A stretch of 48,138 nt of DNA from the sequence record PV340574.1. One strand, given 5' to 3'. Numbering within the stretch: the stretch's first letter is position 1; each line of letters begins with the position of its first letter. Shown in pieces: positions 47,986-48,138 of this stretch. The notes under the pieces are model-generated. The model ran no database searches and was not told the DNA's origin. It was given only the letters and a program-made list of their open reading frames with translations. The stretch comes from Escherichia phage PhiR63_2. Both the position numbers and the translations under genes were made by a program.

Positions 47986-48138
47986 CTGCTGCGCCATATG
48001 GGCTGGACTGAAGCCGCAGACCTGATTGTTAAAGGTATGGAAGGCGCAATCAACGCCAAGACCGTAACCTATGACTTCGAACGTCTGATGGAAGGCGCTA
48101 AACTGCTGAAATGTTCAGAGTTTGGTGACGCGATCATC
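47986..48138 (+). pseudogene. icd: icd 3' fragment (duplicated/displaced copy at the prophage right junction), partial
   Basis: Frame reads [51 protein letters not shown], the C-terminal region of isocitrate dehydrogenase; no start codon; ends at GATCATC, the same heptamer that begins the window. Confidence 0.6.

Follow-up and report, generated by a model that had tools for sequence, protein, structure and literature searches.

The two ends of the Escherichia phage PhiR63_2 sequence (PV340574.1) form a phage 21-type icd integration system, an assignment to which we give a probability above 0.95. The window, i.e., the whole stretch of 48,138 nt that was analysed, is most likely a phage 21-type lambdoid prophage in prophage order, delimited inside its own att homology. 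The icd segment at its right end (47986-48138) is one half of the known arrangement of phage 21-like insertions in icd, in which the element brings along a spare 3' end of the gene. The segment is real but ordinary, being part of the phage 21 / e14 icd system described around 1990, and there is nothing new about it. In general, icd is a well-known prophage site, and the attP carries replacement sequence (PMC10111431); the phage 21 / e14 icd attachment system is also referred to in PMC12803456.

The icd homology and integration genes at the ends of PhiR63_2

The in-frame translation of positions 47986-48138 yields Icd residues 363-413 (51 residues), in agreement with the earlier note, made from the sequence alone, which had described an in-frame C-terminal Icd segment here. 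The icd homology proper, however, begins one base further in, at 47987, and residues 364-413 are encoded in 47987-48138. In the first codon, the base at 47986 comes from phage DNA, so that the codon reads CTG instead of the ATG (M363) of icd; AT-rich phage DNA extends up to this base, directly before the homology. The 152 nt from 47987 onwards are 100% identical (E = 5e-73) to the icd sequence in 13 complete E. coli genomes, and the segment was matched in all 5426 of the 5426 complete E. coli genomes searched, so its identity with icd is not due to chance. In lysogens and phage genomes, the homology runs past the stop codon and through the icd terminator, covering ~215 nt. The segment is the first 152 nt of this icd 3'-end homology block, and the window ends 12 nt before the stop codon. 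At the position of the right-end segment, the RefSeq annotation of lysogens gives a pseudogene labelled 'incomplete; missing N-terminus'.

The 7-mer GATCATC is present at both ends of the 48,138-nt window, the right-end copy being the same 7-mer that starts the window, as had been noted before. The description of the segment as a duplicated icd 3' end holds for this 7-mer, and for nothing else inside the window; two full copies are found only in the lysogen chromosome. At the left end, positions 2-19 translate to IIKNM*, and positions 1-19 are the end of the phage-borne replacement arm. The earlier note had taken KNM* for an alternative terminus, which is contradicted by the native Icd of prophage-free B2 strains such as SF-166, as it also ends in IIKNM*. 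A terminator scan located a stem-loop at 43-65 followed by a T run, the homology to host DNA ends around position 70, and a terminator is annotated at the equivalent place in the phage 21 record.

Exact matches to the dodecamer YYTTCCCCAAAA occur at 85-96, 97-108, 110-121, and 47856-47867 and nowhere else in the 48 kb. All four are within ~280 nt of the window ends and bracket the icd homology. The dodecamer at 47856-47867 is a putative arm site by its sequence, as the phage 21 consensus covers only the int-side P1P2P3. The integrase is identical to that of phage 21 at 377 of 380 residues (BLASTP). Furthermore, a junction with 100% identity to the left 1400 nt exists in UTI89, NU14, IHE3034, and many other strains; there, the annotated CDS of the functional icd continues into the sequence starting at window position 1, with genes for a site-specific integrase and an excisionase behind it. 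This type of int adjoins icd in 1612 of the 5426 complete E. coli genomes, while the icd site is uninterrupted in 2898. Because of the 99% identity with phage 21 Int and the 1612 genomes with int next to icd, Int and Xis of PhiR63_2 are predicted to act in integration and excision at icd. The features of both ends are collected in Table 1.

Table 1 Attachment-site features and integration genes at the two ends of the PhiR63_2 window.
Feature	Position	Strand	Basis
Last five codons and stop (IIKNM*) of the icd copy completing the functional gene in the lysogen	1..19	+	Reached by the annotated icd CDS of UTI89
icd 3' UTR with its intrinsic terminator, belonging to the phage arm	20..70	+	Terminator scan, extent of homology
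Three tandem P'-arm Int arm-type dodecamers (TCTTCCCCAAAA, CTTTCCCCAAAA, CCTTCCCCAAAA)	85..121	+	attP subsites P1P2P3 in phage 21 record OL657228.1
Int, lambda-family tyrosine integrase with N-terminal arm-binding domain	133..1275	-	Pfam PF09003 (1.8e-28), PF00589 (8.9e-24)
Xis, excisionase	1265..1501	-	Pfam PF07825 Exc; annotated as excisionase in UTI89 and phage 21
P-arm copy of the putative Int arm-type dodecamer (CTTTCCCCAAAA)	47856..47867	+	Exact match to the dodecamer YYTTCCCCAAAA
Common core TGCTGCGCCATATGGG, common to attP, attB, attL, and attR	47987..48002	+	NU14/SF-166 allele segregation
icd 3'-end homology, first 152 nt	47987..48138	+	Translation, icd allele identity, lysogen annotation

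The attP module in phage 21 and related phages

A synthetic attP was composed of the P arm of the window, the attL-type icd arm of UTI89, and the left end of the window. All 1345 nt of this sequence align without interruption to 17 phage records, phage 21 among them, with identities of 98.4-99.6%; an 18th record, M61865 (phage 21), covers 95% of it. The records in cos order with an internal attP, i.e., phage 21, Perceval, ev017, ev207, 1H12, and 4A7, show P-arm DNA, ~215 nt of the icd 3' end, the arm sites, and int in contiguous order, which bears out the earlier claim that the phage carries a substantial icd-homologous arm. The two ends of the window hold both halves of this icd 3'-end block of ~209-215 nt.

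The closest known counterpart is phage 21 (OL657228.1, M61865), with an Int that is 99% identical and an attP that is 98.7% identical over the 1345 nt. Its record lists an ICDH-like pseudogene, a terminator, an attP with three subsites (P1P2P3, consensus YYTTCCCCAAAA), a tyrosine integrase, and an excisionase, in this order, and remarks on the ICDH-like protein 'no Shine-Dalgarno; no expression; pseudogene'. Int, Xis, arm sites, core, icd homolog, and terminator of PhiR63_2 are arranged as in phage 21, both running from the P arm through the icd homolog, the terminator, and the three YYTTCCCCAAAA sites to int and xis. From dodecamer to dodecamer, i.e., from 47856 through 121, the PhiR63_2 module spans about 397 bp. 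The attP of phage 21 is reportedly unusually long, at roughly 370-420 bp, and is said to have to include the 209-bp icd homolog, a result attributed to Wang et al. 1997, J Bacteriol 179:5705. The phage 21 int-xis-attP module that integrates into icd is likewise said to go back to Campbell, Schneider and Song 1992 and Wang et al. 1997. Both phages also have icd as their common chromosomal target and carry sitABCD cargo next to att. The icd arm of phage 21 differs at a few silent positions, with CAGC at homology positions 127-130 and AAAAATATGTAATTACCAC after GATCATC. In contrast to the shared module, the remaining genome is a different lambdoid mosaic, and the PhiR63_2 window, unlike phage 21, is in prophage order and cut inside the homology.

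Position of the strand exchange

Homology positions are numbered from 0 at window position 47987. The attL and attR of the lysogen NU14 differ at eight of the 215 positions (16, 28, 31, 58, 67, 70, 157, and 166), the first of which corresponds to window position 48003. In the prophage-free sister strain SF-166, all eight informative sites are in the attR state, while the phage arm of Perceval has the attL state at seven of them, with position 67 as the exception. Since the attB of SF-166 equals the attR of NU14 at every one of these sites, the exchange falls left of position 16. Judged by these allele states, strand exchange would take place inside or at the left edge of the common core (47987-48002), 165 nt before the icd stop codon, with a resolution of 16 nt. 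In addition, a construct joining UTI89/NU14 icd up to the homology edge with the NU14 remnant and the DNA downstream of it is 100% identical over 1100 nt to the prophage-free strains SF-166, SCU-122, and 19AR1321. The e14 element of K-12 gives the same crossover location as NU14: the e14 boundary is annotated 165 nt ahead of the icd stop codon, icdC has a length of 165 nt, and CAC at position 9, a marker of the e14 arm, goes with attL.

GATCATC occupies homology positions 145-151 and is a mere cut point of the record, 145 nt inside the homology. The earlier note had regarded this 7-mer as the junction; the NU14 and SF-166 states place the exchange at the 5' edge of the homology instead. It was also the earlier note that suggested comparing both junctions with icd from a prophage-free strain and counting the substitutions on each side, and this comparison located the crossover within the first 16 nt.

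A variant of the core (TGTTACG), in which TGTTACGCC replaces TGCTGCGCC and both encode Leu-Arg, is present in the attP of 1H12 and in PhiR47_2. The lysogen 118UI carries this variant in both attL and attR and gave no sharper mapping of the crossover. The occurrence of the variant in a phage attP and in attL and attR of its lysogens would fit a required identity of phage and host in the overlap region.

Conservation of the Icd protein

The phage 21-type arms examined differ from B2 icd by 4-10 nt and by 0 amino acids, and the Icd accession WP_000444487.1 is common to lysogens and empty-site strains. Integration is thus predicted from these sequences to leave the Icd protein unchanged and the gene functional. 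The e14 arm is more diverged (13 nt) and encodes two residue changes relative to B2 Icd, E398D (within MDGAK) and K414E. The first of these concerns a residue that had been singled out in the earlier note, where MDGAK was tentatively given for K-12 Icd and MEGAK was proposed as a possible mark of the phage-borne copy. The K-12 reading was correct, while the proposal turned out to be the reverse of what is found: glutamate is general, occurring in empty-site hosts, in the icdC remnant of K-12, and in every phage 21-type arm examined, whereas aspartate is specific to e14, being confined to the e14-borne arm by which K-12 icd is completed. Excision of e14 is known to swap the aspartate codon for glutamate (PMC6379469, citing Hill et al. 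1989), and corresponding D-to-E substitutions have been reported (PMC13626634).

Origin of the right-end icd copy

The 152-nt copy at the right end is probably a host-derived, icdC-like remnant at attR (the B' side), as allele comparisons suggest. In that case, most of the phage-borne copy would be situated immediately to the left of the window, and the record would be shifted by 145-152 nt relative to the true prophage ends. The closest prophage to the whole window is that of the E. coli type strain ATCC 11775, with 99.99% identity over 1-12345 and 99.70% over 13051-48138. Searches with the right junction, the central 16 kb, and the SitB sequence gave this prophage and the metagenome scaffold L029 as nearest relatives, with no exact source among the sequences searched. 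Compared with this prophage, there are 0 differences across 45288-48044 and then two in the icd segment (48045 and 48057), as expected if phage DNA here meets DNA from a different host lineage. The attL arms of ATCC 11775, UTI89, NU14, and FEX669 read T16 G28 T31 C58 T67 C70, while the right-end copy of the window reads C C A C C C at positions 16, 28, 31, 58, 67, and 70. The window copy is thus host-type at all four of the positions that discriminate it from the arm of its nearest relatives, yet its allele also serves as the phage-side arm in other lysogens. Its 152 nt recur unchanged in MS 16-3, where icd is uninterrupted, and in the attR remnants of A37, Q5, and GF130. The same allele, however, is the phage-derived attL arm in PG20180057 and MS20657, and the own arm of phage 21 equals the window copy over the first ~127 nt, so sequence leaves the host origin unproven. 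While the earlier note leaned towards the segment as the arm of the phage, the allele comparison makes a host remnant most likely; its statement that the host-derived copy cannot be told from the window alone is correct, as the diagnostic DNA beyond GATCATC lies outside the window.

The context of the junction in other genomes was compared as well. At the opposite end of the prophage, 788 genomes have a junction that matches the right 639 nt of the window, and in lysogens this junction consists of an icd fragment 'missing N-terminus' followed by the host genes ymgL, ycgX, and bluR. In every related lysogen examined, host flank (ymgL, ycgX, or iraM) follows the remnant, whereas the window itself ends before such a flank. 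Among ten further lysogens, the remnant beside the same P arm varies with the host flank. The right junction of the window had no exact match among the complete genomes (best 99.8%), and the P arm joined to the right-end copy had no match in an exact-pattern scan of IMG/VR. One metagenome scan revealed two attR junctions, with remnants of the phage 21-arm type, and neither is the source of the window. For the annotation of PhiR63_2, this means that the last 152 nt of the record are probably host DNA and that the true phage arm then differs at four silent positions.

Two sister records have informative ends. PhiR47_2 (PV340567.1), deposited as a complete phage genome, starts with CATCAAGAATATG and ends with ...GCGATCATC, i.e., it has the same GATCATC cut as the window, and PhiR57_1 (PV340572.1) begins at the stop codon of int, finishes where the last small CDS ends, and is devoid of the attP region. 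Both look like records cut from lysogen assemblies. The paper mentioning the PhiR phages makes no statement on how genome ends were defined.

Alternative explanations

It could also be argued that the record represents a circular phage genome, excised or virion-derived, that was opened inside the attP arm, in which case the right 152 nt and the left 70 nt would be a single phage-borne arm and the record would contain no host DNA. We regard this as possible but unlikely. The 7-nt terminal redundancy and the length of the window resemble a complete record, and PhiR47_2, itself a deposited phage genome, is cut at the same 7-mer; however, the record is in prophage order and not in cos order, and the way in which PhiR57_1 is cut, at gene boundaries and without attP, points to extraction from lysogen assemblies. 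A circular genome would further require that the arm is a recombinant, host-like in its 5' two-thirds and phage-like after GATCATC, brought about by RecA/Red exchange or gene conversion in a lysogen. Such an origin is favored by the visibly mosaic nature of the arms, which have exchanged alleles with hosts, as in the agreement of the phage 21 arm with the first ~127 nt of the window copy, by the attL arms of PG20180057 and MS20657 mentioned above, and by the phage 21-like 3' end borne by the empty-site strain MS 16-3. Nevertheless, the joined arm (right end plus left end) had no exact match as attL in the 5426 genomes (best 99.5%) and none in IMG/VR in an exact-pattern scan, and it was not found among the aligned phage arms, while prophages with 99.7-99.99% identity to the window have another arm (T16 G28 T31 T67). 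The concentration of two differences in the 152 nt of the icd segment, against 0 in the preceding 2757 nt relative to the closest prophage, also speaks against a purely phage-borne right end, as does the frameshift in gpJ relative to five relatives; barring a sequencing error, such a frameshift would not be expected in a phage that forms plaques. Slightly more doubtful again is the specific case of a real circular phage genome with a fresh chimeric icd arm, in which RecA/Red exchange or gene conversion, and not Int, joined a host allele up to GATCATC to a phage allele after it. If true, this chimeric arm would be an allele swap between a phage arm and the host icd 3' end caught in the act.

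Two further explanations of the locus were considered, and both are very improbable. If GATCATC were the true recombination core, the 152 nt would belong to the P side and only KNM* and the terminator, on the P' side, would replace host sequence; the 7-mer does stand at both ends of the window, and tyrosine integrases usually have overlaps of 7 bp (PMC10111431). This candidate was rejected, as six of the differences between NU14 attL and attR lie upstream of GATCATC and SF-166 carries the attR states there, meaning that the attL segment upstream of the 7-mer is phage-derived. The K-12 e14 boundary and the length of icdC, both at 165 nt, likewise argue against it, and the surrounding block of identity far exceeds 7 nt. 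It could equally be imagined that the fragment is an expressed phage gene for a small Icd-derived peptide with a function of its own, as a CDS of 50 residues is listed in some phage records under the name 'isocitrate dehydrogenase' or 'hypothetical protein'. This was rejected too: the reading frame enters from phage DNA without the icd start, and RefSeq treats it as a pseudogene missing its N-terminus. Against expression, there is also the remark on Shine-Dalgarno and expression in the phage 21 record, and the all-synonymous substitutions are accounted for by selection acting on the complete Icd whose end the arm supplies. The small CDS annotated in related phage records is a relic of the att site, not a gene of metabolism.

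Integration into icd

Returning to the preferred reading, a phage 21-type prophage with a host remnant at attR, the last 165 nt of icd are replaced by a synonymous copy and the host copy is left as a pseudogene. The attP would consist of a P arm with an Int arm-type site, the core, ~215 nt comprising the last 165 nt of icd and the terminator, and three arm-type sites beside int. Like lambda Int, the integrase may bridge the arm dodecamers and the core, and it would swap strands within TGCTGCGCCATATGGG, 165 nt upstream of the icd stop codon. After integration, the phage-borne copy, encoding the same amino acids, would complete the host icd, whereas the host's own last 165 nt would remain as a promoterless, icdC-like pseudogene at the opposite prophage end. 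The terminator of the arm would presumably end the icd transcript before int.

The e14 element of K-12 has its attB in icd as here, supplies the last 165 nt of the gene, and leaves the displaced 165 nt of the host as the pseudogene icdC at its far end. However, e14 is a 15-kb defective element with a P arm different from that of PhiR63_2. Reportedly, the integrases of phage 21 and e14 do not efficiently cross-excise, as attributed to Wang et al. 1997. The principle of replacement described for e14 and icdC is the same (PMC6379469; PMC13626634). More generally, tyrosine-integrase elements that insert into conserved genes, including many tRNA genes and icd, carry a replacement copy of the displaced end, as seen here. 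The block of identity between attP and attB, which can reach ~250 bp and has the crossover core at one of its edges, keeps the target gene functional (PMC10111431). In contrast to the tRNA-type targets, the icd target of PhiR63_2 is protein-coding, and the constraint is therefore visible as exclusively synonymous substitutions in the arm.

Exchange of icd alleles and other features of the prophage

Since this type of int lies beside icd in so many of the complete genomes (1612 of 5426, with 2898 uninterrupted sites), phages are often the origin of the final 165 nt of icd, which is among the genes of E. coli MLST schemes. The empty site of MS 16-3 is an uninterrupted icd with the last codons, the 3' UTR, and the terminator of the phage 21-arm type. 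In addition, several lysogens (L027, L028, L029, and L033) have an attR remnant identical to the own arm of phage 21, followed by host flank. MS 16-3 and these remnants are evidence that phage arms have been left behind in host genes and were later displaced again. Recurrent recombination at icd in natural isolates has been cited (PMC13626634).

The mismatches between the window and the ATCC 11775 prophage are clustered, with 60 of 98 in the tail genes at 33-36 kb and 28 in the sit operon at 43-45.3 kb, indicating recombinational mosaicism and not uniform divergence. The window also has a 705-nt IS200-like insertion at 12346-13050, between ren and ninB, that is not in the ATCC 11775 prophage. 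It contains a Y1 transposase ORF at 12438-12947 (phrog_2577, phrog_2393) and a match to Rfam STnc490 at 12356-12479 (146 bits). The gpJ tail-tip ORF (36347-39619) encodes 1090 aa, compared with 1160 aa in relatives: a run of six C at 39521-39526, where ATCC 11775, FEX669, 118UI, L029, and L033 have seven, frameshifts the C-terminal ~100 residues. The shorter run reflects either a genuine prophage defect or an error in sequencing the homopolymer.

Among the remaining genes, the iron/manganese ABC transporter sitABCD, which phage 21 has as well, is located next to attR (42620-46069, minus strand). The minus strand further encodes an OmpC-like porin (15919-17061), and a homolog of the Bor/Iss serum-survival lipoprotein (18791-19132), and it has a match to the lambda cIII thermoregulator RNA element (5212-5270; Rfam, 88.5 bits). 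Finally, the 'partial genome' of vB_EcoM-689R6 (ON470584.1) contains a full-length icd of 1251 nt followed by a DUF262 gene and a different integrase. This record appears to include host DNA, and there may be a third kind of element at the icd site.
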